Shown: positions 1 through 15,993 of the stretch, piece by piece
Numbering within the stretch: position 1 is the stretch's first letter
How the letters are laid out: every line of letters begins with the position of its first letter
Virus record (IMG/VR): IMGVR_UViG_2718218126_000001
From: a virus
Taxonomy: Duplodnaviria > Heunggongvirae > Uroviricota > Caudoviricetes
Length of the DNA stretch: 38,732 nucleotides
Strand: one strand, 5' to 3'
The notes under the pieces: generated by a model
The model's input: the letters and a program-made list of their open reading frames with translations, nothing else
Told to the model about the DNA's origin: nothing
Database searches by the model: none
Position numbers and translations under genes: made by a program

Positions 1-798
1 TTAATGAACATTCGTCGCCGAAAACGAGTCTGTATCATTAGTGCGATGCAGTCTCTGCAAAGGATCTTGTTGATAAAATTGGCAGAAACGTTGCCACAAT
101 GAAGGGAAACGAGGAGCAAAAAGTTCTGGGGCGCTAAAGAAATATTCAGAAAGTACGGCAAAACATTCAGCAGGATCACTGGCAGCATAAGCATCAATGC
201 TCGCCGCATTCTCGCCAACCAATTCGATTTCTTCCTGAATGTTGTTCATTGCAGCATGAAGATCGTGTTCCCAGCCAGCAACCTCACGCAACGGAATAAA
301 GGGAACTCCGCTGGCGCGATCGCCGTTACGGGTGTCCAGCTTATGAGCGACTTCATGAATAATCAGGTTAAAACCAGAAGCATCAAAAGAATCTTGTATA
401 TCCAACCAGTTCAAAACGATAGGCCCTTGCTGCCAGCTCTGACCTGACTGAACAATACGTTGGTTATGCACCAGACCGATATCGTCTTCCCATTCATCAT
501 CGACCACAAATGGCGCAGGATAAATTAAGACTTCATGAAAACCATCCAGCCATTCCAGTCCTAACTCCAGAACGGGTAGGCAAAATAGAAGTGCTATCCG
601 GCAGCTTCTTAATGAATCCAGTTCAAAGCCCTGTAAAGGAACAAGCCGCTTTTGCTGTAAAAAACGTTCGGCAAGAGTGACTAATTTGCTTTGTTCCTGT
701 TCCGTCAGACACGTTAAAAGGGGGATCGATAGTGCTTCCTGCCAGGGAAGGGCAGTTTGATGTGCTGATTCTTGTACTTTCCAGGGCCACTTAATCAT
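1..798 (-). CDS. mtfA: Mlc titration factor MtfA (host gene, complete; stop codon at 1-3)
   Basis: ORF 1..837 matches MtfA/YeeI over its full length ([20 protein letters not shown]..., HEVAHKLD zinc-peptidase-like motif). Start assigned to the internal ATG at 796-798, giving 265 aa. Confidence 0.85.
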
Positions 799-891
799 CG
801 TTTTGCTCGCAAACTCGTCACTTGAACAAAATTGCACGGACAGGGACTGTTAAAATGCCAAATTTCCTGGCATCATGGCAACCATCTGAAC

Positions 892-981
892 GGAGAGATG
901 CCGGAGCGGCTGAACGGACCGGTCTCGAAAACCGGAGTAGGGGCAACTCTACCGGGGGTTCAAATCCCCCTCTCTCCGCCA
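892..981 (+). tRNA. serU: tRNA-Ser (anticodon CGA), 90 nt with long variable arm and encoded CCA
   Basis: GGAGAGATGCCGGAGCGGCTGAACGGACCGGTCTCGAAAACCGGAGTAGGGGCAACTCTACCGGGGGTTCAAATCCCCCTCTCTCCGCCA. Anticodon loop CT-CGA-AA; class II tRNA architecture. Confidence 0.9.
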
Positions 982-1038
982 CTTTATCAATGACTTACGT
1001 CACTCACTTTTCACCGTCGATCCCCCTGTTAGAACGGA

Positions 1039-1061
1039 CTTAGAATATTCACTTAGAATTA
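1039..1061. repeat. Two direct copies of ACTTAGAAT between tRNA and int; possible integrase arm-type sites
   Basis: acttagaatattcacttagaat seen in sequence directly upstream of the int stop. Function is inferred. Confidence 0.25.
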
Positions 1062-1066
1062 GACCG

Positions 1067-2095
1067 TCACGGGTTTCTGCTCAGAACTGTGACATCCAGC
1101 ACCGGAATATCCAGAGTCGGAGAAACTGCAGGTTTGCGATCATACGTCAGCACCTGCGCCTCAGTTTTGTGACCAGAGAACAACTGCTTTTCTTTACTGC
1201 TTCCGTCGTAGTCTGAGATCCCCTTCGCTTTTAAATCGTGAAACGTTCCCGTAATCGGGTAGCCCAGCTTTTCACTTGCCGCCGCCCTGGCTTTACGCCA
1301 GATATCGTTAAATCCGGTATAACTGTATTGCCCGCCATATTTGTTACAGACCACGAAATGTTGTCCTCCCAACGATTTCGCCTGCTCAAGTGCGAACGTC
1401 AGTCGCTCTGAATACTGTTTGATCTGCTTTTTGCCAGTCTTACCCTGTTGGATAAACAAACCCTTACTCATAACCTGATCCCACGTCAGCTTTCGTATAT
1501 CGCCGATCCGCGTGGCGCACAGATAGGCGATCTCCATCGCGCACTGTAAAACGGGAGATGCCTCCTGATAAATTGCGATATATTCCTCGTCCGTGAAATA
1601 GTAGTCGCGGGGCTTGAGGGAAAATTTACTGACGCCCTGGCATGGATTCCCTTTTACGTATCCGCGTTCGTATCCCCAGCGGAATACTCGCGACATACTG
1701 GCTTTTTCATGGTTCGCCTGTGTTTTGCTTTTCAGCCCCCGCTTGTCCATATACAGCCGCACGTGAGCAGGTTTTATGTTGTCGGCTTTCATTTTCCCGA
1801 ACGCGGCGAGTAATTTCTTCTGGTGCTGCAGATAATCCTTTTGTGTACGCTGACCGAGTTCCAGATAGTAGGTGCTGTTGAGAAATTTGTTCCAGAGTTT
1901 ACTGAACGTCATGACATCAATAGCATCATTCAGGATCTCTTCGTATTTCACCCATACCTGAGCAATTGACAGATCATTAATTTTACCCAGCGTAATACAC
2001 TCTCGGGGCGTTGGTTTGAAATAATAGCTGTATTTGTTTTTATAAACGCGGGGTGGCAGCTTATTATCTTCCGCGCTTTTTCGTGTTCTGCTCAT
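1067..2095 (-). CDS. int: Phage integrase, tyrosine recombinase family
   Basis: 342 aa with RIGD, HDLKAKG and C-terminal LTYDRK-type catalytic Tyr region. Adjacent to tRNA; ATGA overlap with upstream gene. Confidence 0.9.
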   Translation of the reverse strand: MSRTRKSAEDNKLPPRVYKNKYSYYFKPTPRECITLGKINDLSIAQVWVKYEEILNDAIDVMTFSKLWNKFLNSTYYLELGQRTQKDYLQHQKKLLAAFGKMKADNIKPAHVRLYMDKRGLKSKTQANHEKASMSRVFRWGYERGYVKGNPCQGVSKFSLKPRDYYFTDEEYIAIYQEASPVLQCAMEIAYLCATRIGDIRKLTWDQVMSKGLFIQQGKTGKKQIKQYSERLTFALEQAKSLGGQHFVVCNKYGGQYSYTGFNDIWRKARAAASEKLGYPITGTFHDLKAKGISDYDGSSKEKQLFSGHKTEAQVLTYDRKPAVSPTLDIPVLDVTVLSRNP

Positions 2096-2310
2096 CAGAT
2101 TGCATCAAAATTTGGTTGTTCTTCTTCGGCAATCTGCACGGACCTTGCTCCGGACAGCGCAGCGTTTACATGCGTCCATGTGACGCGAGGTCGCCCATCG
2201 CGGCGTTTTACATAAGAGATCCCGGCACGGGTCAGGGCGCCGCATTGTTTTGACGGGAACTGGTAGCCGGTCAGTTCAACCAGTTCCTCGTCGTTTAACA
2301 GATCGTTCAT
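2095..2310 (-). CDS. DUF4224-like small protein (excisionase-like position)
   Basis: 71 aa with LVELTGYQFPSKQ motif typical of DUF4224 proteins found beside integrases. RBS GAGGAAAG upstream; stop overlaps int start. Confidence 0.5.
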   Translation of the reverse strand: MNDLLNDEELVELTGYQFPSKQCGALTRAGISYVKRRDGRPRVTWTHVNAALSGARSVQIAEEEQPNFDAI

Positions 2311-2470
2311 GGTCTTTCCTCATTATGTAGCTTATTGCGTCATCTGCCACATGGCAGGCACGGGCAATATCAGACTCGGTCAAGGCCTGTTTCCTGACGC
2401 TGGCCGACAGTCGGCCAATTTTGATATCAAATGCGGAGAGCAGAGTTGCTCCCGGTTGCCATCGCAGCAT
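2276..2470 (-). CDS. Hypothetical small protein (64 aa from internal ATG; possible small DNA-binding or directionality factor)
   Basis: ORF 2276..2500; ATG at 2468-2470 is preceded by AGGAGG at 6-nt spacing. Function unknown. Confidence 0.35.
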   Translation of the reverse strand: MLRWQPGATLLSAFDIKIGRLSASVRKQALTESDIARACHVADDAISYIMRKDHERSVKRRGTG

Positions 2471-2519
2471 TGTGATCCTCCTGTTACTGGTGAATCGCAA
2501 TGCTAGCGATGGTGAGTTT

Positions 2520-2702
2520 TTATTTCTGATTAGGCGTAATCAGTTCTGGTGGGGGGAATGCCGATTTCTCCCGCGTGACCTTAATGTTTTCTGGCAGGTG
2601 TAGCCCAAGTTCGCAGCGACTCCGTGCTTCAATAATGCCATTGGTACCATCGGCAAGTACCAGGTGAACCGCGTCACCACGCTTTAATGTGAGTTTAAGC
2701 AT
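2520..2702 (-). CDS. CsrA/RsmA-like small RNA-binding protein (putative)
   Basis: 60 aa: MLKLTLKRGD...GLHLPENIKVTREKSAF aligns by eye with CsrA MLILTRRVGE...GVNAPKEVSVHREEIY. 1-nt TAATG overlap with upstream gene. Confidence 0.4.
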   Translation of the reverse strand: MLKLTLKRGDAVHLVLADGTNGIIEARSRCELGLHLPENIKVTREKSAFPPPELITPNQK

Positions 2703-3271
2703 TAGCGTACCCTCAGCGAACGTTCGCCGCGTTCCAGATGTGCGCCTGGTACCGGGTTTAATAACTCGGCTGGTGGTGTTTCTCCACGCGCCAGTATTTC
2801 GGCGGCAACCGCCTCCGCAGATTCAATCACTTCTTTAATGGCTCGCTTGTTTGGTGTAATAACCGTTTCTACATCAACAAGTGACACGCCTTCATACTCA
2901 TCCGGGATCTTATCTTTGCTATCGATAATTACCCGGATAGCCCCCTGTGCATCAGTAAATGTGTTTTTTGCGGTTTTTAGTTTATCCAGGCCAGCAGCTT
3001 GCTGGCAGGCGAGCATATGCTTCCGAATTGCTTTTTCCTTGCCTTCAAAGGACGTCTTACGGGTAGCCAGGCGAGACATTTCTTCAGCGCAGGTACTGGC
3101 ATTGCCCTGTAAATTGCGGCAGATGACCATCATGGCGTCCAGTTTGTCTCCCAGTTCTCCTTCCATACCTTCAAGTGTGTCGGCGATCATCTCTGGCGTC
3201 AGTTCGTCGGAGGTTTCCAGCAGGTCAATCAGGCTGGCGTATTCTTTTGCAATAGCGATAGCGGTGCTCAT
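2702..3271 (-). CDS. Phage protein, Siphovirus Gp157-like (putative; recombination-module associated)
   Basis: 189 aa; N-terminal IAKEYASLIDLLETSDE...DTLEGMEGEL pattern recalled from the Gp157 family. RBS AGGAG; translationally coupled to neighbours. Confidence 0.45.
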   Translation of the reverse strand: MSTAIAIAKEYASLIDLLETSDELTPEMIADTLEGMEGELGDKLDAMMVICRNLQGNASTCAEEMSRLATRKTSFEGKEKAIRKHMLACQQAAGLDKLKTAKNTFTDAQGAIRVIIDSKDKIPDEYEGVSLVDVETVITPNKRAIKEVIESAEAVAAEILARGETPPAELLNPVPGAHLERGERSLRVR

Positions 3272-5484
3272 GCTGTTTGCTCCTGTGCGGCGGCGAGAGC
3301 GGCGAGGCGTTCGGTTTTGATGTCGCTGATACGGCGCAGACGTGATCCCAGATACGATGAATATTCTTTATCGCCTTTGGCTTCCGCTGCTTTCCTGTGT
3401 ACATCCACTTCGCGGGCGATGAGGCCAAATACCTTGTTTACTTCGTTGGCGGTTACCGCGGCGGCCAGCGTATTGGCAACGTTGATAAGCTTCTCATCCA
3501 GTTCCTTACGCAGACGGGTAGCATCTTCCGCATTTTCGCTGGCATTCTTGATATCAAACTCAGCTTTATTCCTCTGGCGGTATTCCGGATTGTCGTACAG
3601 GCCCATGAAAATATCGGCGCTGAATCCGAGAGGGGATAGCGCTTTCTTAACAGCATCCGTCCAGGATTTCTTCGGCGCTTCGCCGTCGCTTGTTGGTCCG
3701 TATTTAGTGTCGTAGATATAAGGTGTGCATCCGTAAGCCTCGGACTCACCGCGCACTCCATTCAATATGTACCAGACTCTAACTTTCATGGTGTGGTGCA
3801 TTTCACATAGGTACCCGCCAACACCGTCTTGAATCAGATCCCATTCTATTTTTTCACCAACCTGTTTTTTGCGAACTATCGGTGCGCCTTTATCAAAACG
3901 CTCTTCCACCACCTCTACACCCCAGCCAATACCAAACGGCCCAAATTCGCGAGTCGCTTTCATCGCTATATAAGTGCCGTTGATGGATGTGCCGCCGCCG
4001 TTCTGAGAGAAAGCACTGGTGAAGCGCTCATCGGTTTTGAATACGTTCTTCCACAATGCCAGGTTATCTGTGTCGTCGGAGTCCTTTAACTCCGTTTCGA
4101 TAGCTGAGATTGCATTCTGCCGCTTGTGCTCTTCGGTATGGACCCGCTCAACCAGCGCGTCAACGTTCTGCACCAGATCCTTTACCTGCTCGCTAAGTTT
4201 TTCTTGTGGAGGAGTCTCTTCTGCCAGGGTAATTGCTGCAGGTTCCCTCTGTGATACGGCGTTATTTTCAGGTACGTCATACACATGGCGAGGCGTGACA
4301 AACTGCTCACGCAACTGCTGCAAACTACGTTCTCCAGCATTTGCAGCTTCGCTTTTTTCGCCCTGATTTGAGGGTGTTTCTGACATCATCCCATCAATTG
4401 AGAATCGTCCGCCGCCGTGGTTGGTGACTTTTACATCATCCTTTGGTGCTGCTTCCTTTGGCTTCTCTTCAACAGCATTTGCATCACGCTGCCCGTTAGC
4501 TTGCAGCCAGTTGTCGATGTGACTGCGCAGGGATTGTGGGAAGTGGTACGTGTCTTTTGCGGGGGCGCTCTGAATAACACCGAATACTGATGCACGGTCA
4601 TAGGCAAGGATCTGATCCGTTGTGCGCAAGGCCATTGACCAGCGTTTAAAATCTTCCCTGTCCTGACTGATTATTTCGTCTGCCGCTTTCAGGATGCTGG
4701 GGGTGATTTTTTCCGGGCCAACGGGTAACAGGGCGCAGGCAATTTCACGATCCAGTGTGGCGTGAGTCTGTTGGTAAGGACGTGCGGATGCTGTTTCTGG
4801 TTTTACCTCCGGCAGCATTTCATCGCGTTTACCGGGATTCTCTACCCATTTTTTTATAAATTTGGAGATAGTCCAACTGGTCGGGTTTTGTTCCTGGGTA
4901 TCGCAACTTGCCAAAATTGCATGTACCAGATTATTCAATCCAGCAATATGCATGTACTCGATGGGCTTACACGCCACCATGGCATCAAGAACGATGCGGT
5001 TAAACGCGTCAACCTCATCCTCACTGTCAGTATCACTGTTGTCGAGCATCTCCAGGTATTCACGCGTCTGCGCAAGCAATTCACTGTCGACTTCGTTGGC
5101 ATCGTGGCTGAACAGCAGGACGGCGGCGAAGCGTTCACGAGCAGGCAGTTTCATCAGGTCGCTAACCTGTGAGATATCTGCTGAACTGCAACCTGAATCA
5201 ACAGGAGTGTTAACTACCCATCTCTCGCCATCAAAACTGTGTTCTGTGGCAAACGTCTCATCAAACTCACCGACGCCTGGGCGCGGTTGGCCCGGGGCAT
5301 CTTCCCAGATTTTAGGTTTGAAATAGTTGTCGCCGTGGTCAGGGTAGGCTTCCCACAATTTGCCGATGATGATGTTCTCGGCAACTTTTTTGTTAGGGGC
5401 GTCGATGGCGATGGCCAGCGCCGGGATCGCGCCGTTTTTGAGCGCACCTTTTTTCGCTTCTAACAAGCCGTTAAAAATGGTCAT
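3268..5484 (-). CDS. Large early protein with Rad52/Sak-type single-strand annealing domain and ~450-aa N-terminal extension
   Basis: 738 aa. Residues ~480-640 carry Rad52 signatures (GPFGIGWGVEV, KKSWTDAVKKALSPLGFSADIFMGLYD). RBS GAGGAAAG before the ATG at 5482-5484. Confidence 0.6.
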   Translation of the reverse strand: MTIFNGLLEAKKGALKNGAIPALAIAIDAPNKKVAENIIIGKLWEAYPDHGDNYFKPKIWEDAPGQPRPGVGEFDETFATEHSFDGERWVVNTPVDSGCSSADISQVSDLMKLPARERFAAVLLFSHDANEVDSELLAQTREYLEMLDNSDTDSEDEVDAFNRIVLDAMVACKPIEYMHIAGLNNLVHAILASCDTQEQNPTSWTISKFIKKWVENPGKRDEMLPEVKPETASARPYQQTHATLDREIACALLPVGPEKITPSILKAADEIISQDREDFKRWSMALRTTDQILAYDRASVFGVIQSAPAKDTYHFPQSLRSHIDNWLQANGQRDANAVEEKPKEAAPKDDVKVTNHGGGRFSIDGMMSETPSNQGEKSEAANAGERSLQQLREQFVTPRHVYDVPENNAVSQREPAAITLAEETPPQEKLSEQVKDLVQNVDALVERVHTEEHKRQNAISAIETELKDSDDTDNLALWKNVFKTDERFTSAFSQNGGGTSINGTYIAMKATREFGPFGIGWGVEVVEERFDKGAPIVRKKQVGEKIEWDLIQDGVGGYLCEMHHTMKVRVWYILNGVRGESEAYGCTPYIYDTKYGPTSDGEAPKKSWTDAVKKALSPLGFSADIFMGLYDNPEYRQRNKAEFDIKNASENAEDATRLRKELDEKLINVANTLAAAVTANEVNKVFGLIAREVDVHRKAAEAKGDKEYSSYLGSRLRRISDIKTERLAALAAAQEQTA

Positions 5485-5617
5485 TGGTCTTTCCTCATTA
5501 CAGGTCAGTGGTCTTTAGTAGGGGATTTCAACGGTATCTGGCGTGTATTCGATGCAAAGTAACTGAATCGCCCCGGGAATCCTGGAGACTAAACTCCTTG
5601 AGAGAGAGGTAAACAGG

Positions 5618-5944
5618 ATGACTAAAAATACGCGCTTTTCCCCTGAGGTCCGTCAGCGGGCCGTTCGTATGGTTATCGAAAGCCAGAATGACTATGACTC
5701 GCAGTGGGCGGCCATCAGCTCCATCGCCCCTAAAATCGGCTGTACGCCTGAGACCCTGCGTACCTGGCTGCGTCAGTATGAGCGCGATGCCGGTGCAGGT
5801 GACGGCGGACTGAGCACCACTGAACGTCAGCGTCTGAAGGAACTGGAGCGTGAAAACCGCGAACTGCGCCGCAGCAACGATATCCTGCGCCAGGCTTCCG
5901 CGTATTTTGCGAAGGCGGAGTTCGACCGCCTGTGGAAAAAATAG
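5618..5944 (+). CDS. IS3-family transposase OrfA (HTH)
   Basis: 108 aa [19 protein letters not shown]...[31 protein letters not shown]; leucine-zipper-like C-terminus typical of IS3 OrfA. Confidence 0.9.
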
Positions 5945-6831
5945 CGCCTCTGGTGGATACCCTGCGTGGTGCGCACGGGGTCGGACCGGTATGCCACGAG
6001 CTGGCTGTCGCCCCGTCAACGTATTACCGGCATCGTGCGCATCAACGGCATCCGGATAAACGCAGTCAGCGGGCACAGCGTGATGACCTGCTGAAGCCGG
6101 AGATACAGCGCGTGTACGATGAAAACCACAGCGTGTACGGTGTGCGCAAGGTCTGGCGCCAGTTGTTGCGTGAGGGGGTGACCGTGGCCAGGTGCACAGT
6201 AGAACGGCTGATGAAGGTGATGGGGCTTGCCGGTGTGCGCCGGGGTAAAAAGGTCCGCACCACAGTCAGCCGGAAAGAAGCCGCTGCGGGTGACCGGGTG
6301 AACCGCCAGTTCGTGGCAGAACGCCCCGACCAGCTGTGGGTGGCTGACTTCACGTATGTGAGCACCTGGCAGGGCTTCGCTTACGTGGCGTTCATCATCG
6401 ATGTGTTCGCCGGCGTCATTGTGGGCTGGCGGGTCTCATCGTCGATGAAAACGACGTTCGTGCTGGATGCACTGGAGCAGGCGCTGTGGGCCCGTCGCCC
6501 GTCGGGCACCATCCATCACTCAGATAAGGGGTCACAATATGTGTCGCTGGCATACACTCAGCGGCTTAAGGATGCAGAGTTGCTGGCGTCAACCGGCAGC
6601 ACAGGCGACTCATATGACAACGCGATGGCGGAGAGCATCAACGGACTTTATAAAGCGGAGGTGATACATCGTAAGAGCTGGAAAAACCGCGCCGAAGTGG
6701 AACTGGCCACACTGACGTGGGTGGACTGGTACAATAACCGACGGTTGCTGGAACGACTGGGTCATATCCCGCCGGCAGAAGCGGAAAAGGCATATTACGC
6801 TTCCATCGGAAATGGTGGTCTGGCAGCCTGA
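5932..6831 (+). CDS. IS3-family transposase OrfB (DDE catalytic domain), expressed as OrfAB by -1 frameshift in the A-run at 5936-5941
   Basis: 299 aa in the -1 frame relative to orfA, overlapping at TGGAAAAAATAG. Contains [18 protein letters not shown] and [15 protein letters not shown] motifs of the DDE core. Confidence 0.85.
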
Positions 6832-6873
6832 GTTCACAGATAAAACACTCTCCCGGAAAACCGGGGCGGTTCA

Positions 6874-7128
6874 AACGCGATGGCGGAGAGCATCAACGGA
6901 CTTTATAAAGCGGAGGTGATACATCGTAAGAGCTGGAAAAACCGCGCCGAAGTGGAACTGGCCACACTGACGTGGGTGGACTGGTACAATAACCGACGGT
7001 TGCTGGAACGACTGGGTCATATCCCGCCGGCAGAAGCGGAAAAGGCATATTACGCTTCCATCGGAAATGGTGGTCTGGCAGCCTGAGTTCACAGATAAAA
7101 CACTCTCCCGGAAAACCGGGGCGGTTCA
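6874..7128 (+). repeat. Tandem 255-bp duplicate of the IS right end (copy of 6619..6873), including a second right terminal repeat
   Basis: Exact repeat seen in sequence; ORF 6880..7086 duplicates the last 68 aa of OrfB. Most likely a remnant of a second IS copy after rearrangement. Confidence 0.85.
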
Positions 7129-7184
7129 GAAATGTCCGCTCTCTCATCCTCTGGACAGAATGCGGCGCAGCTCGCCATGCCAAA

Positions 7185-7688
7185 ATGCTGGAAACAGAAC
7201 AGGCCTGGGAAGTTTTCGAAAAGCTGGAAGATTGTTATTTTAGACAGCGTCCAGAGAGGCGGAGTACAACTACCGATGACCGTACTCCCTTACGTGATGC
7301 CGTTAATATGCTGGTCGGTAAGAAAGGCATGATGTATCCCGATGCCTACACCATGATTCATCAACGCTTCGCCGTCTCTCACATAGAACAACTGTCACAG
7401 ACGCAAATGTTAGAGGCGATTGAATACATCCACTGCCTGCTACTCGATGAAAATCAGCCAACCATTCCAGATTTTTCTTTTATCACCACTATCAAAAATG
7501 GAAAAGTGACCAGGATGCGCCATGTTGCCAAAGGCGAACATCTGATGACGTTTGACGCTTTCAAAGAGATCGCTGAGCGGGCAGGGTATCTGGTGATCCA
7601 CAGCGACAACCTGCGAAGTATGACGCTGGATAAATTGATGGTAATGGGGAAAAAGTCGGTTGTATCCGTTGCTGATTCAGCATTTTGA
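7185..7688 (+). CDS. Phage regulatory / antirepressor-like protein, probably 5'-truncated by the IS-associated rearrangement
   Basis: 167 aa from ATG 7185, but the same frame is open back to the IS end at 7129 with no upstream start. Functional assignment weak. Confidence 0.35.
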   Translation: MLETEQAWEVFEKLEDCYFRQRPERRSTTTDDRTPLRDAVNMLVGKKGMMYPDAYTMIHQRFAVSHIEQLSQTQMLEAIEYIHCLLLDENQPTIPDFSFITTIKNGKVTRMRHVAKGEHLMTFDAFKEIAERAGYLVIHSDNLRSMTLDKLMVMGKKSVVSVADSAF

Positions 7689-7720
7689 CAGGTTGAATGT
7701 TTGGCGCGGTTATACTCTAT

Positions 7721-7797
7721 TTGCGCTTAAAAAGGTATTTAGTCACAACCAGCACGAGGCCGAATACTCTGTCAAAGTACCGCCCATGTAAAACTGT
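7721..7797. repeat. Direct repeat copy A (~77 bp, ~93% identical to 11322..11398); decayed copy of the 3' end of the membrane-protein gene
   Basis: ttgcgcttaaaaaggtatttagtcacaaccagcacgaggccgaatac... versus copy B; 4 mismatches and a 1-bp deletion that breaks the reading frame. Confidence 0.8.
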
Positions 7798-7865
7798 TAC
7801 GTATGTACTTGATGACTAAGCTGGCACCAGGTTAACACCAGGCGCCAGCTTGAAGGAAACTTCAG

Positions 7866-8789
7866 TTATTGGTTTCTGAGGAAAGCGATTCTTGAAAGGG
7901 TCATTTGCGTCTGGCAGTCGACCATTTTCTTGACTTCAGCATCTGTTCCCTGCATTGAAACTTTACCGCACATAGCATCCTTAGTTTTGATCCACTGACG
8001 CTGAGAAGGCAGCAACTCTTTTTTCTTCGCCGGCGTTAACCTGCCCCAGACTGTATTCAAATCAGAGTCAGCATTCGCAAATGCCATTCGGGACTGATCA
8101 AGGCTTTCAGCTTTTTGCGGCTGAAGTTGTGCCTGCCTCTCTATTTGCTTCTCCGCCTCATACCTGGCCTGTTCCTGTGCCCTGAGTTGCACCTGTTGTT
8201 CCGCTTCAATTTGACTCTGTTGGGCATCCTTAGCCTGCTGGATTTTCTGCTGCTCAACGATCGGGTTGATAATGGAAAGCGATGTCAGTAAAGCGGCGCC
8301 CACTGATATCGGATTATCAGAAGAGGTTTTTACAAAAACGTTTTTCTGATCGTCGGTCGCCTGCACGGTGTAGGTGATACGTTTTGAAAAGGCGTTTGCG
8401 TTGTTCTCCAAAAACAGATTTTCCATTTGCTTATCGAGATTACGATTAAAATTCTTTCTGTAAGCATCAGAAAGCTGGACGTACTCGTTCGCAGGTAGAG
8501 TCATCGTCACGGTCCCTTCACAAGTTTTCATTGTGCTGCCCGTGTCACTTGATGTTGTGGAGATTTCAGAGACGGCTAGTTTGATCTTGTCCAGTGTGCT
8601 TCGTTTGGTCTGATTAGTGACATCAGGGTATTTATCGACCTGTTCAGAGAGTCCTTCATAAGCAGATTTTTTTAATAAATCCATGAGAGCTGATTGGGTC
8701 ATTTCCGAAGAACAACCGATCTCATCTTTTTTGTTATCACAGCCTGTAAGGGCAATGGCGAGTAAGAGTACTGAGTATTTTAATCTCAT
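7866..8789 (-). CDS. Lipoprotein with C-terminal DUF1311 (LprI-like lysozyme-inhibitor) domain, putative
   Basis: 307 aa; signal peptide plus lipobox LAIALTGC; Gln-rich coiled-coil middle; C-terminal ...DLNTVWGRL...QRQWIKTKDAMC...MVDCQTQMTLSRIAFL resembles DUF1311. Confidence 0.55.
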   Translation of the reverse strand: MRLKYSVLLLAIALTGCDNKKDEIGCSSEMTQSALMDLLKKSAYEGLSEQVDKYPDVTNQTKRSTLDKIKLAVSEISTTSSDTGSTMKTCEGTVTMTLPANEYVQLSDAYRKNFNRNLDKQMENLFLENNANAFSKRITYTVQATDDQKNVFVKTSSDNPISVGAALLTSLSIINPIVEQQKIQQAKDAQQSQIEAEQQVQLRAQEQARYEAEKQIERQAQLQPQKAESLDQSRMAFANADSDLNTVWGRLTPAKKKELLPSQRQWIKTKDAMCGKVSMQGTDAEVKKMVDCQTQMTLSRIAFLRNQ

Positions 8790-9415
8790 GAATTCCCTTT
8801 AGAGTAAGGATTGGTTTTTAAGACGCGGTCTGTAATCAGTTCCGAGAGCTACAGTAAACAACGCTGAGCACTGAACGCATCACAGGCAAGGTAAAAGGTG
8901 ATATCGGCAAAGGCTGTGAAACCTTTAATTCAACAGATGGGAACGGTATGCACAGGATCCTGTAACGACGCTCCCAAAACCGGAAACCTGTAAGGCATGT
9001 TTTCGCTGCTGAACTTAATATACGAACCTGCACTATCATGAACATATTTTATATCGTTATACCCCGAGTGATTGTGCCCGGCAATGGATAGTGTCCTGGA
9101 GGAACTATTTCTACTGTAAAAGGTAGACATTTAATTTCAGTGTGGAATTATTCCCTGCTGTTAATAACCATGGCTCTATATGGCACCGAGCGGACTAGTT
9201 AACTTGCCTGAAAGCCGCTATGAGTGAGGAGCGAATATTGGCACGATAGGATACCTGAACCATTTTTTGGACATGCGCTAAAAGCGAATGATTAGTTTTA
9301 TCGGAATATTTACAGTATACTTACAAGGCAAGCTTGGCGTACCGTCTTGGGCGAGATTGCTTAAATTATTTTGTGGATATATCATTCAAACAAAAGATAA
9401 TAAAATGAGGTTGTT

Positions 9416-9613
9416 ATGTCATATATTCGCGTAGAGAAAGATGGCCTTCAGTATGAAGCAGAATACTTCCGTGAAGAGGATATGGTCACAGTCTTTGGGG
9501 TTAGAGGAGGGCATTCCAGCGTGGTTCTAAATGGAATGACAGAAGTCGCGGCTGCTCGTACTGCGTTACGAAATCTTATTAGAGAAAATCAGGTTGATCC
9601 TCTAACTGATTAA
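9416..9613 (+). CDS. Hypothetical small protein (65 aa)
   Basis: RBS TGAGG 8 nt upstream of the ATG; AT-rich surroundings; no recognisable motif. Confidence 0.4.
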   Translation: MSYIRVEKDGLQYEAEYFREEDMVTVFGVRGGHSSVVLNGMTEVAAARTALRNLIRENQVDPLTD

Positions 9614-9817
9614 AAATAAGCCATCTTAACTGAGAGCATATTTTGATATAATTTAGATTAAATCTATTTTGAAGGTTAGTTTGGGATGAGAAGATTACAT
9701 CAAAACCGTTATTACTAGCAATAAGTTGTGTAAATCAAATAATACATAATCAGGTGGTAATATATACTAAGCGTAGTAAAGTTTTTATATATTCCTGTAA
9801 CTTTGTGAGAAACTTCC

Positions 9818-10483
9818 ATGAAAGCCGACAACTTAAGAATTATAGAGAATGGCAAATATGTTTTCGATATGTTCTTGGATACTGGTGAATTTTACTATAC
9901 AAGTCATGCCTTTGACACGAGAGAAGATGCAAAAAGCTGGATGGAAGAATGGCAGATTTGGGCAAATAATGTATCGAGTGGGAAAGTAAGTAGTATTTAT
10001 TATATTTTACAAGTGCCTGATACTTGGGCCGGTTCTTCAGATAAAAATAACCCTTACTCGGGACTTTATGTGAAAATAGGGCGTTCCAATAATGTGCTAA
10101 AAAGGTTGTCTAACCTGCAGACAGGTGCATTTGGTCAATTAATATTACACGCTTTGGAACCAGGTGGTTCAGAAAAAGAAAACTATCTTCATGAAAAATT
10201 TAGCAACGAAAGACGTCAAGGTGAATGGTTTGTTTGTACTAAGGAACTTACCAAGCATATATTTACAACATGGTTTAAAAACAAAATGCTCCCACCAGAA
10301 CATCAAATAAAAATAATGCAGCTCGCAGAAAGAATAGGTATTTATTCGCATGTTCATACACTAATGGGGGGGAAGCCAGACTTAGTAAACCCATCTATTA
10401 GTGAACCTTGGGAATGCGAAAAATATGTTTTGGTTGATATGATTTATAGCTCTTTAGCAAAGCAAGTTAATCATAAAAAATAA
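9818..10483 (+). CDS. T5orf172 / GIY-YIG-like domain protein (putative nuclease)
   Basis: 221 aa; SSIYYILQV...GLYVKIGRSNNVLKRLSNLQTG...EKENYLHEKFSNERRQGEWF matches the GIY...YIG...R...E pattern of T5orf172/MUG113 domains. Extended -10 TGaTATAAT upstream. Confidence 0.6.
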   Translation: MKADNLRIIENGKYVFDMFLDTGEFYYTSHAFDTREDAKSWMEEWQIWANNVSSGKVSSIYYILQVPDTWAGSSDKNNPYSGLYVKIGRSNNVLKRLSNLQTGAFGQLILHALEPGGSEKENYLHEKFSNERRQGEWFVCTKELTKHIFTTWFKNKMLPPEHQIKIMQLAERIGIYSHVHTLMGGKPDLVNPSISEPWECEKYVLVDMIYSSLAKQVNHKK

Positions 10484-10803
10484 AGTGTTACATTTTAACT
10501 ATACAATTATTGATTCACTAATGAAGAGGTGATTTAGACGTATGAAGTTTTAATAAGCTCCAAGAATATTTTGTCATACATGGGTTAAAGAGTTATATAA
10601 TAATATCTGCTTCTGGAACACAGCAGACAAGCACCTGCAGATAAAGGTCTGCTGAGAGCGAGAAGCGGATCATACGTTGGAAGTTGTTTAGGCAAATACG
10701 TTATAAACGTATTTGATTAAATTTACTTGGATCATAGTCTTCAATAACGCTTTATTATATTGTTTTTCATGCAGCAAACAGGTTCACAGGTAGGTAATAA
10801 GCT

Positions 10804-11208
10804 ATGAGTGGATGGAAAGAGCCTTTTACATTAGCAGAACAGATACAATTAGCATTAAATTTAGGTTATGAGGCTGTACCAGATGAAGAGGCATATACTG
10901 GGGCATACTTCATTAAAGGTGGTAAGAAGTGGATCTTTAACATCATCGGTCTCAAAAAGACATTGAATATATCTTCAGATGATGAACTAAGAGGGCAGGA
11001 TTATGATGTTGATATGTATTTCGAAATTCGCCAAAATTGGGCACAATACCAAGATATGATCTTTGGAAGCGAAGATATCACTCCTTCACCTAAAAATGAA
11101 CTTACTTCAATTTACCATGACCTGCAGGTAACGGATGAACCCAGGGAAATGGTGTATCTTTCTGATGGGATGTGGCTGGATCCCAACGGACGAATTGTAC
11201 AACGATAG
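10804..11208 (+). CDS. Hypothetical protein (134 aa)
   Basis: Own upstream region with palindromes (aaatacgt/acgtattt at ~10694-10715); no recognisable motif. Confidence 0.45.
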   Translation: MSGWKEPFTLAEQIQLALNLGYEAVPDEEAYTGAYFIKGGKKWIFNIIGLKKTLNISSDDELRGQDYDVDMYFEIRQNWAQYQDMIFGSEDITPSPKNELTSIYHDLQVTDEPREMVYLSDGMWLDPNGRIVQR

Positions 11209-11317
11209 CACTCGAACACACTCAGTAATCGTCTATAAGGCCAGCACTTGTTACTTGGTCATTTGGGGTTGCTGGTCTTCTCCATTAAATCGACTAAAGT
11301 CTGTTCCATAGAGAGAG

Positions 11318-11923
11318 TTACTTGCGTTTAAAAAGGTATTTTGTCACGACCAGCACGAGGCCGAATACCTCTGTCAAAGTACCGCCCATGTACAACTGTA
11401 GTGTTAAATCCTCAAATTCCAGCTTACCTGCGCCGTCGGCAATAAATACACCATTCATTATCAGAAGTTGGCAAGCAAGGATAATCAGGAACCATTTCCC
11501 GTATCGTTTTTTTAGAGCGATTTCTGCTTCAAAATCTTTGTTGTTGAGTTGTTTGCGCTCATGCTCGGTATCAAGTGAATTCACCTGTTTCACAGATGTG
11601 AACTCGGTCAAGATTTTACTCTCAGTACGGGTGACTTGTTGAGAGGGTGTAACAGTTGGAATTCTTTTGCTAGACGCAGCTACAGCCATTTTGCGAGCTT
11701 CGGCAGCTCTTTTTCTGGCTATTCCGCGAATACGGACAGCCGTTTTTTTGGGGGCGTGCGAAACCTTTGGCTGAGGTGAAGTTTCGTCAGGAGACTGAAC
11801 CGGGGTTTCATCGTCCCCCGGCTCAACCTCTTCTGCTAACTGACGGTGTAGGTTGAGGGAATCCTTCAGTCGGCGTGCAACTTCCTGTTTGAAACGGCTG
11901 TTAAAATCGTCATCCGATGGCAT
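11318..11923 (-). CDS. Membrane-anchored protein: hydrophilic basic N-terminal region, two predicted C-terminal TM helices
   Basis: 201 aa; WFLIILACQLLIMNGVFIADGAG and TLTEVFGLVLVVTKYLF hydrophobic segments. Starts 9 nt after the peptidase stop; last 25 codons lie inside direct repeat copy B. Confidence 0.55.
   Translation of the reverse strand: MPSDDDFNSRFKQEVARRLKDSLNLHRQLAEEVEPGDDETPVQSPDETSPQPKVSHAPKKTAVRIRGIARKRAAEARKMAVAASSKRIPTVTPSQQVTRTESKILTEFTSVKQVNSLDTEHERKQLNNKDFEAEIALKKRYGKWFLIILACQLLIMNGVFIADGAGKLEFEDLTLQLYMGGTLTEVFGLVLVVTKYLFKRK
11322..11398. repeat. Direct repeat copy B (~77 bp), coding the 3' end of the membrane-protein gene
   Basis: Matches 7721..7797 with 4 mismatches and 1 indel. 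Confidence 0.8.
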
Positions 11924-11932
11924 TCTAAAGCG

Positions 11933-12421
11933 TTACCCCAACCTCAAGTTCTTTAAACGATAAGTCATCGCATCGTCAGATACGCCAAAATAATGCGCCA
12001 TTATATAACTTGGTTGGCCGTCAGCGTGCAGTTTTCTGACCTCATCAACCGGCATCAGAAGTTCTGCTGCGAACTTGTTCGCAAAAATTTCATCAGGATG
12101 CGTTCCGGCGCTTGCGGTTTCGCCACGTAAATCAACGTACTCATATTCATCACTATGCGATGCTTGCCGGGCGATGTAATGCCCCAACTCATGCCCACAT
12201 GAAAAACGTTGACGAACTTTGTTGTCATCACTGTTTAGAAAGATCGCTGGATCTTGATCTTTTTGTTTAATCAGTGCGCCAGAAACTTTCCCAGGAAGAT
12301 CGGTAATAAAAACATCTAATCCCATGTCGTGAGCAATTTTCGCTGGATCAACAGGGAAACCACGCCCGCACCAGAACGTGTCCAGCACTCGCCGGGCGTG
12401 CTCTCTTGGGTTGGTAGCCAT
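11933..12421 (-). CDS. ImmA/IrrE-family (DUF955, M78-like) zinc metallopeptidase
   Basis: 162 aa; HEXXH as CGHELGHY and downstream DEIFANKFAAELLMP, the family signature. RBS GGAGG. No fused HTH domain. Confidence 0.7.
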   Translation of the reverse strand: MATNPREHARRVLDTFWCGRGFPVDPAKIAHDMGLDVFITDLPGKVSGALIKQKDQDPAIFLNSDDNKVRQRFSCGHELGHYIARQASHSDEYEYVDLRGETASAGTHPDEIFANKFAAELLMPVDEVRKLHADGQPSYIMAHYFGVSDDAMTYRLKNLRLG

Positions 12422-12495
12422 AGCTCCTCCAGTTACTGCATTACGATTGTTGGTCGAAATATAGACAACATGTTCCGTACCACTTTCCTGTGAAA

Positions 12496-12510
12496 GTGCA
12501 AATTCTGCAC
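12496..12510. promoter_or_regulatory. Perfect inverted repeat GTGCA-N5-TGCAC upstream of the peptidase operon; candidate operator
   Basis: gtgcaaattctgcac seen in sequence, ~75 bp upstream of the peptidase start on the minus strand. Confidence 0.3.
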
Positions 12511-12750
12511 TTCTGGTACGATATTAACTGTTAGTAGTAAAGTCTTCCAGATAAATCACTTTAAAATCTTGTGAATTGCTTGCTTTTTACGCTGCATTGT
12601 GGATGGCTCAATGTTTCCAGTAAAAACATACATGATAATCATGACATTAGTGGTTTTTTAAGCGTCCATATGTTTCTTAAAAAAATGGATGCCACAAGAG
12701 GCCAGATGAGAACGGAAAGGGAAGGCTATTACATGTGTGATTTATTACAT

Positions 12751-12766
12751 CTGTAAAAAAATACAG
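12751..12766. promoter_or_regulatory. LexA-box-like CTGT-N8-ACAG motif (weaker match)
   Basis: ctgtaaaaaaatacag in the divergent intergenic region. Confidence 0.3.
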
Positions 12767-12855
12767 ATCTAACTTGATCTTTTCATTGAAGTTTTTCTTG
12801 GTCCTGGATAGGATCTGGAGGTTGCGAAGTTTTTAGAGTCGCATCAAAGGGAAAG

Positions 12856-12879
12856 CCCTGACAGCGCCAACTGTCAGGG
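12856..12879. other. Perfect 9-bp stem / 6-nt loop hairpin of unknown function
   Basis: ccctgacag-cgccaa-ctgtcaggg in a 540-bp non-coding region. Confidence 0.3.
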
Positions 12880-12988
12880 CCATACAAAAACATCGGTTAA
12901 TGCTTTCGTTGAGATCTCGGTTTGGGAGATTACCTCAACCGGGATCCCGTGTAAAGCATTCATTACCGAAAATGATATAGGTCAATGA

Positions 12989-13267
12989 ATGAAACACATC
13001 TGTAAAAAGTCACATCGTCACGACAGTATGTTTGATGTTCTTTCTGCAAATCAGGGTAACGTTGGGCGGCACAAGTGTTGTGGATGTGCCTATGATAAAG
13101 GTATGTGGCATGCATTAATCGGCGTTCCGCGTGCGGTTGATGACTCTGTTTTAGGTGATTTACCCGAAAGCCAGGCTGGGCATGTCCGTCATAAAGATGC
13201 TTTTGAAGCATATAATATGGGCTATGACCATGGGATGCATAAAAAAGCCTACGGTATGGCCTCATAA
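12989..13267 (+). CDS. Hypothetical Cys/His-rich small protein (92 aa)
   Basis: Followed immediately by a strong intrinsic terminator, which favours this strand over the overlapping minus-strand ORF. Function unknown. Confidence 0.4.
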   Translation: MKHICKKSHRHDSMFDVLSANQGNVGRHKCCGCAYDKGMWHALIGVPRAVDDSVLGDLPESQAGHVRHKDAFEAYNMGYDHGMHKKAYGMAS

Positions 13268-13288
13268 TCTGGTGCAAATGAATAACTA

Positions 13289-13316
13289 ACCCGCTTCGGC
13301 GGGTTTTCTTTTTTAT
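13289..13316 (+). terminator. Rho-independent terminator
   Basis: acccgc-ttcg-gcgggt stem-loop followed by tttcttttttat. Confidence 0.6.
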
Positions 13317-13385
13317 AGAACCCTGCGATGTGAAAACGAATAATAAATTTTGCAAATAATGCAGTTTTTATTATTCGAGGTAATT

Positions 13386-14027
13386 ATGAAAACCTTCTAT
13401 GAGGACTGGCCTGAAACTTTCGTTAGCCGATTAGATATGTTACGAGCTCTGGATGATCGCGGCTCGACCCGGAGGCTCTATCTTGAGCGGACCGGGGCAA
13501 TATTTGACGCTCTGGCAGAAGAGATACGTACAGCCGTTGCCGGGCATCCTGAAATCGACGTGAGTGAACTTGATATCGGGCCGCTGTATCGCTATTACAA
13601 ACGTGGAGAAAAGGGGAATCCGCTGGCTGACTTACTTATTGAGTTGGCTCCACCAACTTGTGAACGGGTTCGTATATCTCCTGAAGTGTACACAATCCCG
13701 TATCTGTTTTTTGCACTGTTGCTAGCGCAAGGCGCTGACAACGATGCCCGCGATTTTTTCAATATGATGATGCGACCGTTGATCATCGCCTACCGTTTCA
13801 AACAACTGGCGCGCTACCTTGGCACTAAGGGCGGAGGACGACCACAGCACAGATTAAAAAGCGAAGCCATTGAACTGGCTGATCGTTTTTTTACTGAAAA
13901 CCCGACAGCGCCATTATCGCGTGGTGTGCAATACATATCCGGTATTTTTGTGGCGAAATACTCTGACCCACCTGCAGCGTCGACGATTAGAAAATGGTTA
14001 ATTTCAATTTACAGGAGTGATAAATAA
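13386..14027 (+). CDS. Hypothetical protein (213 aa from ATG with GAGG RBS)
   Basis: ORF 13350..14027; preferred start MKTFYEDWPETF at 13386. No recognisable motif. Confidence 0.5.
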   Translation: MKTFYEDWPETFVSRLDMLRALDDRGSTRRLYLERTGAIFDALAEEIRTAVAGHPEIDVSELDIGPLYRYYKRGEKGNPLADLLIELAPPTCERVRISPEVYTIPYLFFALLLAQGADNDARDFFNMMMRPLIIAYRFKQLARYLGTKGGGRPQHRLKSEAIELADRFFTENPTAPLSRGVQYISGIFVAKYSDPPAASTIRKWLISIYRSDK

Positions 14028-14069
14028 TGACCATAAACGGTTTAATCTCCTATAAAACCGTTTAATAAA

Positions 14070-14089
14070 ATTCACGACGTGAATATAAT
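14070..14089 (+). promoter_or_regulatory. Palindrome ATTCAC-GAC-GTGAAT overlapping a perfect TATAAT hexamer; candidate operator/promoter
   Basis: attcacgacgtgaatataat seen in sequence. Confidence 0.3.
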
Positions 14090-14140
14090 TGTTCATTATT
14101 CCCTCATTGTATCTGGCGTTATGACAAATGCCATAAAATA

Positions 14141-14156
14141 CTGTATAAATGTACAG
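14141..14156. promoter_or_regulatory. LexA (SOS) box, strong match to CTGT-N8-ACAG consensus
   Basis: taCTGTataaatgtACAGgt, 22 nt upstream of the ATG at 14179 and overlapping a TGACAA / TATAAA promoter-like pair. Confidence 0.5.
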
Positions 14157-14178
14157 GTAATGGCGTTAGGGGGAAGAC

Positions 14179-14358
14179 ATGAATATTCAAGAATCTATAG
14201 GCGAACTACCGGAAACATGCCGGGCTGTTATCAAGCGTAAGGACGGACACATCGTTGGTGTGCGTGTTCTGACCGATGATGAACGGATTGCCAGCCTGAT
14301 GGCGTTTCTCGAGTTGGCAGAAATAGCTGGATATACTATTACACCCCCTGACGCGTAA
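14179..14358 (+). CDS. Small protein (59 aa), probably SOS-regulated; not in the supplied ORF track
   Basis: ATG with strong RBS AGGGGGAA; translation MNIQESIGELPETCRAVIKRKDGHIVGVRVLTDDERIASLMAFLELAEIAGYTITPPDA; LexA box directly upstream. Confidence 0.45.
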   Translation: MNIQESIGELPETCRAVIKRKDGHIVGVRVLTDDERIASLMAFLELAEIAGYTITPPDA

Positions 14359-14435
14359 AACACGGTATAATATCGGTGCTGGATTGAACACCCGGCACCA
14401 TTTTCTGAACACTGCCGCGCCACCTGGAGTTAAAC

Positions 14436-15032
14436 ATGGCGCAGCATTCATTTATCAGGGTATCCGGCGGTTCGCTAATACCCGCGACACCAGACACGCA
14501 ACGCTGGTTGACTGAACGAGTCAAACCAGGTGCTGTTGTGTATGCAGATTTCAAACAGGCACGTAATCCCGCGTTTCACCGTAAATTTTTCTCACTTCTC
14601 AACCTGGGCTTTGATTACTGGCATCCGTCCGGAGGGGCTATTTCTCCTGCGGAGCGAGAACTGGTCCACGGCTACGTTAAGTTACTGGCGTATTACGGTG
14701 GGCATGGTGATGTCATGGCTGAGCTGGCTGATCAGTATCTTCTCGATGAGTCGGAAAAGCGCGCGGGGAATATCAGTGCGGTGAAGTCGTTCGAGGCGTT
14801 TCGCGCCTGGGCGACTATGGAATCTGGATTTTATGACGTTCATCAGATGCCAGATGGTAGTTTGATGCGTGTACCTCGTTCAATCTCGTTTGCTGCGATG
14901 GACGATCTTGAGTTCGGTCAACTGTATTCAGCCGTTTTAGATGTGCTGTGGAATTATATTTTGTTCCGCACGTTTGCCTCTCAGGAGGCCGCTGAAAATG
15001 CTGCCGCGCAGCTGTTGGATTACACATCATGA
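14436..15032 (+). CDS. nin-region phage protein, DUF1367-like (putative)
   Basis: 198 aa; RBS GGAG; position upstream of Q. Family assignment from memory of lambdoid nin-region proteins. Confidence 0.5.
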   Translation: MAQHSFIRVSGGSLIPATPDTQRWLTERVKPGAVVYADFKQARNPAFHRKFFSLLNLGFDYWHPSGGAISPAERELVHGYVKLLAYYGGHGDVMAELADQYLLDESEKRAGNISAVKSFEAFRAWATMESGFYDVHQMPDGSLMRVPRSISFAAMDDLEFGQLYSAVLDVLWNYILFRTFASQEAAENAAAQLLDYTS

Positions 15033-15322
15033 AAAAAATCGACCTGAGAAAAGCTGCACGTGGTCGCGCTTGTACTGTGCGTATCCCCGGTGTGTGCAAT
15101 CACAATCCTGAAACCAGCGTACTGGCTCATTATCGTCTCGCCGGAACGTGCGGCACAGCCATCAAACCTCACGATATGCAGGGCGCTATCGCCTGCAGTG
15201 CGTGTCACGATGCCATCGACGGACGTACAAAAACGGATTACGAGCACGACTCATTGTTGTTGATGCACGCTGAGGGAGTTTTCAGAACACTGGCTATCTG
15301 GCGCGATGAGGAGTTTATCTGA
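15029..15322 (+). CDS. nin-region protein, DUF1364 / YbcO-like putative nuclease
   Basis: 97 aa; KAARGRACTVRIPGVCNHNPETSVLAHYR...ACSACHD Cys/His pattern recalled from the YbcO family. Overlapping stop/start with neighbours. Confidence 0.55.
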   Translation: MKKIDLRKAARGRACTVRIPGVCNHNPETSVLAHYRLAGTCGTAIKPHDMQGAIACSACHDAIDGRTKTDYEHDSLLLMHAEGVFRTLAIWRDEEFI

Positions 15323-15993
15323 TGAGTAACGAGTATTTATTGGAATATACCCGCATAAAACTGCGCGCTGCATTACGGGATTTGTCTGGTGGTTCTAAGG
15401 GGCAACTGGAAGCATTGTGTGAGCACCCGCCAGCAGATAAAAACGCATACCCACGCAAACATATTCATCGTGTGCAACTGGAGGACCGGACCGTTGATGC
15501 TCTGGTTACGCCAGTTTATGCCCTGGAAAGTTTCAGCAGACGTCGTCCCGCGCCGCCGATGAATGATTATGAATTCGCTGATTCATCGTGGCGCCGCGCC
15601 GTGAATTCGCTCGACGTTAGCCAGCAGGCGTGGTTGCGCTATTGCTACGGTGGTCACCTGGCGTTCAAACACCAAACAGCTATTTGTGAGGCTGTCTGGA
15701 GTCGCTATAAAGGACACATCCCCGCGTCAACTCAGAGAAAAGTAGCTAAGCGTCTGCTTTCGTTGGTGTGGTTGTCCGTGCAGGCGGTTGCAGCAGCAAA
15801 TAAACGCGAGGATTTTAAGGAGATGGCTGGATCTGCGCTAGCTGGAATGTTGTCTGTTTCTCGTTCCACCTGGTGCGAAACATACTCCCCGCACTGGGTA
15901 GGAATGAAAGAGGCGGTGAGAGCACTTGATGAAATGGCACTTCTTGCAACTTTGCATCATTATCAAAACCATTTAGACGACGTTTGCGTATAA
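15322..15993 (+). CDS. Putative late-gene antiterminator (Q-like), assigned by position
   Basis: 223 aa directly upstream of a promoter/terminator-like region and the lysis cassette; sequence-level assignment weak. Confidence 0.45.
   Translation: MSNEYLLEYTRIKLRAALRDLSGGSKGQLEALCEHPPADKNAYPRKHIHRVQLEDRTVDALVTPVYALESFSRRRPAPPMNDYEFADSSWRRAVNSLDVSQQAWLRYCYGGHLAFKHQTAICEAVWSRYKGHIPASTQRKVAKRLLSLVWLSVQAVAAANKREDFKEMAGSALAGMLSVSRSTWCETYSPHWVGMKEAVRALDEMALLATLHHYQNHLDDVCV

Follow-up and report, generated by a model that had tools for sequence, protein, structure and literature searches.

How SOS induction could be delivered in a prophage that has no recognisable cI-like repressor is the question raised by a short segment of the DNA analysed here, a viral record of 38,732 nt (IMG/VR IMGVR_UViG_2718218126_000001), which at its full length is referred to as the window. 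The window is an E. coli prophage located beside mtfA; its head genes are lambda-like and its tail genes P2-like. A preliminary description made from the letters had placed a LexA (SOS) box in front of a 59-aa ORF and had proposed that this ORF is a LexA-controlled small antirepressor gene. This proposal is supported by family homology, synteny with irsA, conservation of the box, and the repressor type of the relatives, and the locus is likely to be a Gifsy-type module in which an antirepressor is under SOS control.

A LexA box overlaps the promoter of the 59-aa gene

The signals named in the preliminary description were all found in the sequence (Table 1). The SOS box, TACTGTATAAATGTACAGGT, which had been called near-consensus, is placed 22 nt before the ATG (14179), and its CTGT-N8-ACAG core (14141-14156) recurs just once elsewhere in the window. 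The promoter-like hexamers said to overlap it are a -35 ATGACA (14121-14126) and, after a 17-nt spacer, a -10 TATAAA (14144-14149) that lies entirely inside the box. The ribosome-binding site described as strong is an AGGGGG, and the palindrome described as fused to a TATAAT is a perfect 15-bp repeat, ATTCACGACGTGAAT, about 55 bp upstream. Since the -10 hexamer ends in A, the ATGACA/TATAAA pair is absent from the output of the program's promoter scan, which demands T at position 6 of the -10. Because the box covers the -10 hexamer, binding of LexA would block transcription.

Table 1. Coordinates, in the window, of the features discussed in the text.
Feature	Position	Strand	Remarks	Basis
IS3-family element	5566-7126	+	orfA 5618-5941, orfB 5932-6831	Pfam HTH_Tnp_1 and rve
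Upstream promoter-like TTAATA-16-TATAAT	14062-14089	+		Promoter scan and sequence
Perfect 15-bp palindrome (ATTCACG-A-CGTGAAT)	14070-14084		Abuts TATAAT 14084-14089	Sequence
Sigma-70-type promoter	14121-14149	+	10 of 12 consensus matches	Read from sequence
LexA (SOS) box	14139-14158	+	Overlaps the -10 hexamer	Sequence and matrix score
Shine-Dalgarno AGGGGG	14168-14173	+	5 nt before the ATG	Sequence
59-aa gene, candidate small antirepressor of the GfoA/GftA/FsoA/Rem family	14179-14358	+	RefSeq WP_001025459.1	ORF list
Hairpin GGTGCTGG / CCGGCACC, then ATTTTCT	14375-14406	+	Weak terminator-like; between the 59-aa and irsA-like genes	
DUF1367 gene, homologue of Gifsy-2 STM1020 (IrsA)	14436-15032	+		Pfam DUF1367, E 1e-78
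YbcO/DUF1364 nuclease-like gene	15029-15322	+		Pfam
Antiterminator Q gene	15322-15993	+	nin/late-control context	Pfam

Every 20-mer of the window was scored with a LexA heterology index (HI) built from 31 E. coli sites, a matrix that is approximate and is not the published one. On this approximate matrix the box had an HI of 4.6, the best value in the window (the runner-up had 8.7), and since the recA site had 5.1, a value of 4.6 falls inside the range of bona fide sites.

A score of 4.6 was also reached in one of 30 shuffles of the 38.7-kb window, which would fit a LexA-like palindrome that is a chance match in AT-rich DNA and is not bound by LexA. By score alone the site is only moderately unlikely to have arisen by chance, and it is position and conservation that make the case. 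The site lies exactly over the -10 hexamer, upstream of a gene with LexA-controlled relatives. In the aligned upstream regions of diverged alleles, the -35 hexamer and the CTGT and ACAG tetranucleotides were invariant, whereas differences were seen in the stretches that separate the box from the -35 hexamer and from the Shine-Dalgarno sequence; the GGGG core of the latter was kept. The box variants among the alleles were TGCTGTATAAATACACAGGA, TACTGTATATATATACAG(T/G)G with an HI of 0.9-2.0, and TACTGTATAAATATACAGGT, so that some alleles (HI 0.9) are nearer to the LexA consensus than the window box. The preliminary description had pointed to homologues beside LexA boxes in other prophages as a further check, and a LexA box at -40 was found in all nine of the IMG/VR relatives with upstream DNA (HI 0.9-6.4). 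A chance match is, on these grounds, very improbable.

Altered boxes were seen in some relatives. In the prophages L005 and L008, a 2-bp deletion in the TA run (about 5965) changes CTGT-N8-ACAG to an N6 spacing; the large terminase is truncated in both, and the deletion may represent loss of LexA control in decaying prophages. In E. coli S103EC (L094), the LexA box is interrupted by an ISEc53 element (ISL3-like; 1100-3010) that carries a ClbS/DfsB-family gene; the insertion is accompanied by an 8-bp target duplication, ATAAATAT, and parts the -35 hexamer and the left half-site from the -10 hexamer, the right half-site and the gene. The same split match was obtained with NR301 (H108), apparently owing to the same ISEc53 insertion, the junctions having been read only in S103EC.

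The other CTGT-N8-ACAG palindrome of the window, ATCTGTAAAAAAATACAGAT (12749-12768; core 12751-12766), is located in a 570-bp gap between an ImmA/IrrE gene on the minus strand and a 92-aa ORF (12989-13267). This candidate was rejected as a LexA site: its score was weak (HI 11.3), and its surroundings are 99% identical in all relatives, which makes conservation uninformative. A hairpin of the form CCCTGACAG-N6-CTGTCAGGG (12856-12880) has the loop CGCCAA in the window and TTGGAG, nearly the reverse complement, in the relative L002, as if the loop had been flipped. As for the palindrome upstream of the SOS promoter, its 6-bp arms (ATTCAC/GTGAAT) were kept in all aligned alleles and its centre varied; together with the TATAAT, it may form an operator for some regulator or a second promoter.

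The 59-aa ORF is conserved as a coding sequence

The ORF had been called unannotated, which is true of the supplied track, from which it is missing, but not of RefSeq, where it is entered as a 'hypothetical protein'. In the literature, WP_001025459 is mentioned in no paper. Escherichia holds three ORF alleles that are 73-76% identical to the window allele. Between the latter and the others there were 19-21 synonymous and 15 non-synonymous differences (dN/dS 0.16-0.17), showing that the ORF is under purifying selection, as would be expected if it were conserved as coding in related phages. The N-terminal half of the protein has diverged among the alleles, and the C-terminal half is almost identical.

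Of 5,426 complete E. coli genomes, 443 contain the 261 bp with the promoter and the ORF. In 418 of the 443, ST131 strains such as JJ1887 included, the identity over the 261 bp was 95-99%, and the majority of the 443 share a single allele, which is the one present in these ST131 strains.

The 59-aa protein resembles small antirepressors of Gifsy prophages and Qin

The 59-aa protein had no match in Pfam (a copy without PF27490), NCBIfam or PADLOC; PF27490 is precomputed on the Rem-like matches. It matched phrog_340 (PHROG 340) with an E value of 1.6e-20, and Rem of the K-12 prophage Qin matched the same family with 4.4e-21. Because BLASTP gave no alignment between the 59-aa protein and Rem, the link between these two proteins needs profiles. 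In profile comparisons with hhalign, the subfamily of the window protein was aligned with the FsoA subfamily (probability 97.7%, E 2e-12, 46 columns, 39% identity), with the GfoA-like protein gp55 of SEN34 (94.3%, E 1e-7, 49 columns) and with Rem (58%, E 1e-4, 40 columns), and the FsoA subfamily was aligned with GftA (88%, E 2.8e-6, 39 columns).

Weak tblastn matches to the 59-aa protein were obtained in Fels-1, SEN34 and mEp237. The match in Fels-1 is STM0898.2n, that is, FsoA, whose N- and C-termini are encoded by the primers le154/le162 of Lemire et al. Primer pp890 gives the C-terminus of GfoA as ...RRLGYRVTPPSDI (...LGYRVTPPSDI), and the window protein ends in ...AGYTITPPDA. The GfoA primer pattern had no exact match in IMG/VR, and blastn with the GfoA primer DNA gave matches in phages SEN34, SW-37 and mEp237. 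In SEN34, the gene for gp55, where the pp890 DNA matches, is flanked on one side by dinI, which has a LexA box, and on the other by an irsA homologue. The core common to the family is LP...R.V(I/L)....G.V...R.L.DDE.(I/V).(S/A)L..F(L/I)E.A...G(Y). As judged from these profile and motif comparisons, the 59-aa protein is a member of the GfoA/GftA/FsoA/Rem family of small antirepressors.

An exhaustive profile search returned 131 clusters at 50% identity, most of them consisting of proteins of 55-90 aa. In some longer proteins (P0149, P0233, P0241 and P0140), the phrog_340 domain forms a C-terminal module, and the N-terminal modules match 'anti-repressor Ant', Bro-N or Rha-type PHROGs and, in one case, are primase-like. 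This arrangement suggests that the phrog_340 antirepressor domain is a portable repressor-binding module. The AF2 model of the 59-aa protein (pLDDT 77) is compact, with a beta-hairpin (15-31) preceded by a short helix and followed by another (40-49), in keeping with the small single-domain proteins (about 60-85 aa) of the family. When the PDB was searched with this model by Foldseek, no match below E = 1 was obtained, so that structure speaks neither for nor against the assignment.

The window has lost the repressor that its intact relatives retain

The absence of a cI-like repressor noted in the preliminary description is true of the window, but it is a secondary loss. In a comparison with the prophage of strain E62 (L001), window positions 4786-5565 correspond to L001 1-780 (100% identity) and positions 7127-29500 to L001 8228-30601 (99.996%), while the intervening 7.4 kb (L001 781-8227) is absent from the window and 1.56 kb of an IS3-family element stands in its place. 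The last 255 bp of this element are tandemly duplicated (6619-6873 and 6874-7128). The missing stretch of E62 encodes a 135-aa HTH repressor, a Cro/CI-family protein, a YdaT-family protein, a replication initiator candidate and a DnaB-type helicase. Thus, the window is without a repressor because the IS3-family element replaces the 7.4 kb of immunity and replication genes; the prophage did not evolve repressor-free, and its repressor was lost in an IS-associated deletion. In no genome of the 5,426 did a single place match 80% or more of window positions 1-12000, so the IS arrangement was not found among them.

The repressors of the intact relatives are short. That of E62 (135 aa) is 52% identical to DicA, and that of JJ1887 and ETEC1738 (130 aa) is 33% identical to GtgR. 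Both consist of an HTH domain only, and a Peptidase_S24 domain is absent from both; they are 32% identical to each other and have a common C-terminal motif, L(L/F)..LPE(S/A)EK. By these sequence features, E62, JJ1887 and ETEC1738 carry repressors of the DicA/GfoR type without a self-cleavage domain. No co-variation was detected when antirepressor alleles were compared with repressor alleles: the repressor WP_000853106.1 accompanies two antirepressor alleles, and one antirepressor allele accompanies two repressors that are just 32% identical to each other. Since GfoA is reported to be cross-reactive, acting on GfoR and GfhR, the lack of co-variation is compatible with the Gifsy precedent, yet it gives no positive support.

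This lack of co-variation and the absence of a target from the window would also fit a family member with some other role, such as an SOS-induced toxin, an inhibitor of division or a protein that binds some other HTH protein, or a functionless remnant in this decayed prophage. The fusion of the domain to unrelated N-terminal modules, the primase-like one for example, points the same way, as does the report that three putative DUF905 antirepressors of K-12 failed to derepress dicBp (PMC10448788). However, every characterised member (GfoA, GfhA, GftA, FsoA and Rem) is an antirepressor of DicA/GfoR-type repressors (PMC3121763, PMC10448788), and a 100% identical protein is encoded in intact prophages with repressors of the DicA/GtgR type. 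A different role or a remnant is, therefore, distinctly unlikely, and an antirepressor remains the preferred assignment.

Gene order and transcription downstream of the SOS promoter

The LexA box is followed, in the window, by the 59-aa gene, the irsA-like gene, ybcO and Q. The product of the irsA-like gene is 56% identical to STM1020 (E 4e-83). The SOS operon of the Gifsy prophages consists of a LexA box, dinI, the antirepressor gene, irsA, and then nin genes and Q (PMC3121763). The operon does not begin with a dinI homologue, there being no ORF between the LexA box and the 59-aa gene. In Gifsy prophages, the small antirepressor gene alone suffices for induction, and non-polar deletion of the dinI or irsA homologues has no significant effect on induction (PMC3121763). 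Because dinI is dispensable there, its absence was treated as a variant feature of a Gifsy-type operon rather than a defining one. The 59-aa gene fills the gfoA/gftA slot, minus dinI.

The same gene order leaves room for a promoter that serves mainly to transcribe the irsA-like gene, ybcO and Q, by which SOS would lead directly to late genes and lysis, with the small ORF as a minor passenger. All of these genes are co-oriented, and upstream of Q no recognisable promoter lies nearer than the LexA promoter. The U-tract of the hairpin that separates the 59-aa gene from the irsA-like gene is weak, and the fold was no more stable than those of shuffled sequences (z -0.56), so that transcripts may read through it into the irsA-like gene; in addition, the early-right promoter region is deleted in this copy. 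Driving of Q could, in fact, matter most in such a deleted prophage, where pR is gone. On the other hand, the stem of the hairpin is kept across the alleles (a G-T pair being replaced by A-T in L002), the small ORF shows purifying selection and is a member of an antirepressor family, and its Gifsy equivalent is sufficient without its neighbours. We consider a promoter serving mainly Q unlikely, and transcription of Q would be compatible with an antirepressor role of the 59-aa protein in any case. No RNA family of Rfam was found in 12300-14600.

The gene upstream of the module (13386-14027) encodes a protein of 213 aa that falls in phrog_5215 and for which Pfam, NCBIfam and PADLOC gave no match. 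It always precedes the antirepressor module in the relatives, and the genes farther upstream vary (an ImmA module, GmrSD/DUF262, SMEK_N). In the window, the minus strand of 11318-12421 encodes an ImmA/IrrE metallopeptidase (162 aa), which matches CapP of PADLOC (E 2e-25), and after it a 201-aa protein of no family (phrog_5346). CapP is a DNA-damage-responsive protease of CBASS regulation, and the two proteins, encoded in the moron region, may act as a pair that senses damage, in regulation or in defence.

Proposed mechanism and its implications

The Gifsy-type antirepressor module would function as follows. In the undamaged cell, LexA bound to its box would cover the -10 hexamer and keep the 59-aa gene silent. 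Upon DNA damage, RecA-stimulated self-cleavage of LexA would free the promoter, and the 59-aa protein would be made. By analogy with GfoA, GftA, FsoA and Rem, this protein would bind a short, non-cleavable repressor of the DicA/GfoR type and take it off its operators, and removal of the repressor would allow lytic development to start. On this model, the prophage is predicted to be induced via LexA and an antirepressor, not via repressor cleavage.

In the window itself, the presumed target repressor has been deleted and the antirepressor module is therefore orphaned; it is left either to act in trans, on related repressors that belong to other prophages, or not to act at all. It is conceivable, though unlikely, that the orphan is an SOS sensor that couples other (cryptic) prophages of the DicA/RacR type, for example Qin-like dicBF, to DNA damage, and/or that its LexA promoter drives Q and the late lysis and virion genes. 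If this were true, a repressor-less remnant would constitute an SOS-triggered lysis or particle cassette.

The assignment offers a functional name for a 'hypothetical protein' of 443 complete E. coli genomes, and the predicted route of induction matters for how prophages respond to antibiotics that trigger the SOS response, fluoroquinolones for example. Besides, the window and its relatives provide natural variants with which LexA control could be studied: one box is close to consensus, another has its spacing disrupted, a third is split by an IS, and one copy of the module is an orphan.

Comparison with known systems

Among the closest precedents are the antirepressors under LexA control in Salmonella Gifsy-1, -3 and -2, namely GfoA, GfhA and GftA, respectively (Lemire et al. 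2011, PMC3121763). As in these systems, the protein is small and has the core R.(V/L)I....G.V...R.L.DDE....F......GY.(V/I)TPP; the gene belongs to the nin region and not to the immunity region, is followed directly by an irsA/DUF1367 homologue and precedes Q by a few genes; the LexA box overlaps the promoter, as read in the window from the DNA; and the host phages have short DicA/GfoR-type repressors without a cleavage domain. Unlike the Gifsy operons, the window has no dinI, and the antirepressor gene is the first behind the LexA box. Its product is shorter (59 aa versus about 73-77 aa in GfoA, GfhA and GftA) and about 35% identical to the GfoA-like protein of SEN34, and the gene starts with ATG preceded by a strong Shine-Dalgarno sequence, whereas the Gifsy genes are reported to have GUG or other non-canonical starts. 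The backbone of the prophage, with its lambda-like head and P2-like tail next to mtfA, and the deletion of the repressor in this copy are further differences.

By profile comparison, the closest characterised relative is FsoA of the Salmonella phage Fels-1. The fsoA gene belongs to the left operon of its phage, whose CI-type (S24) repressor is cleavable, and it is controlled by that repressor, not by LexA; FsoA-like relatives from Klebsiella likewise lie in the left operons of phages with S24 repressors. The family has, therefore, two modes of deployment, and the window gene is in the LexA mode.

Rem of the E. coli K-12 prophage Qin, which derepresses the DicA-controlled dicB promoter (PMC10448788), shares with the 59-aa protein its membership of PHROG 340 and a location in the nin region, rem being two genes upstream of Q, and its target, DicA, is the protein to which the repressor of the intact E62-type relative is 52% identical. 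It differs from the window protein in its length (83 aa) and in an internal insertion, and direct similarity is weak. No LexA box was found upstream of rem in K-12. The same logic, a LexA-controlled antirepressor that inactivates a non-cleavable repressor, is followed by Tum of phage 186 and AntC of N15. These two proteins presumably belong to families different from that of the 59-aa protein.

The SOS-antirepressor module of the Gifsy type is, thus, already known, and what is new is its dinI-less E. coli version, by which the Gifsy paradigm is extended to an E. coli prophage type with a simpler operon.
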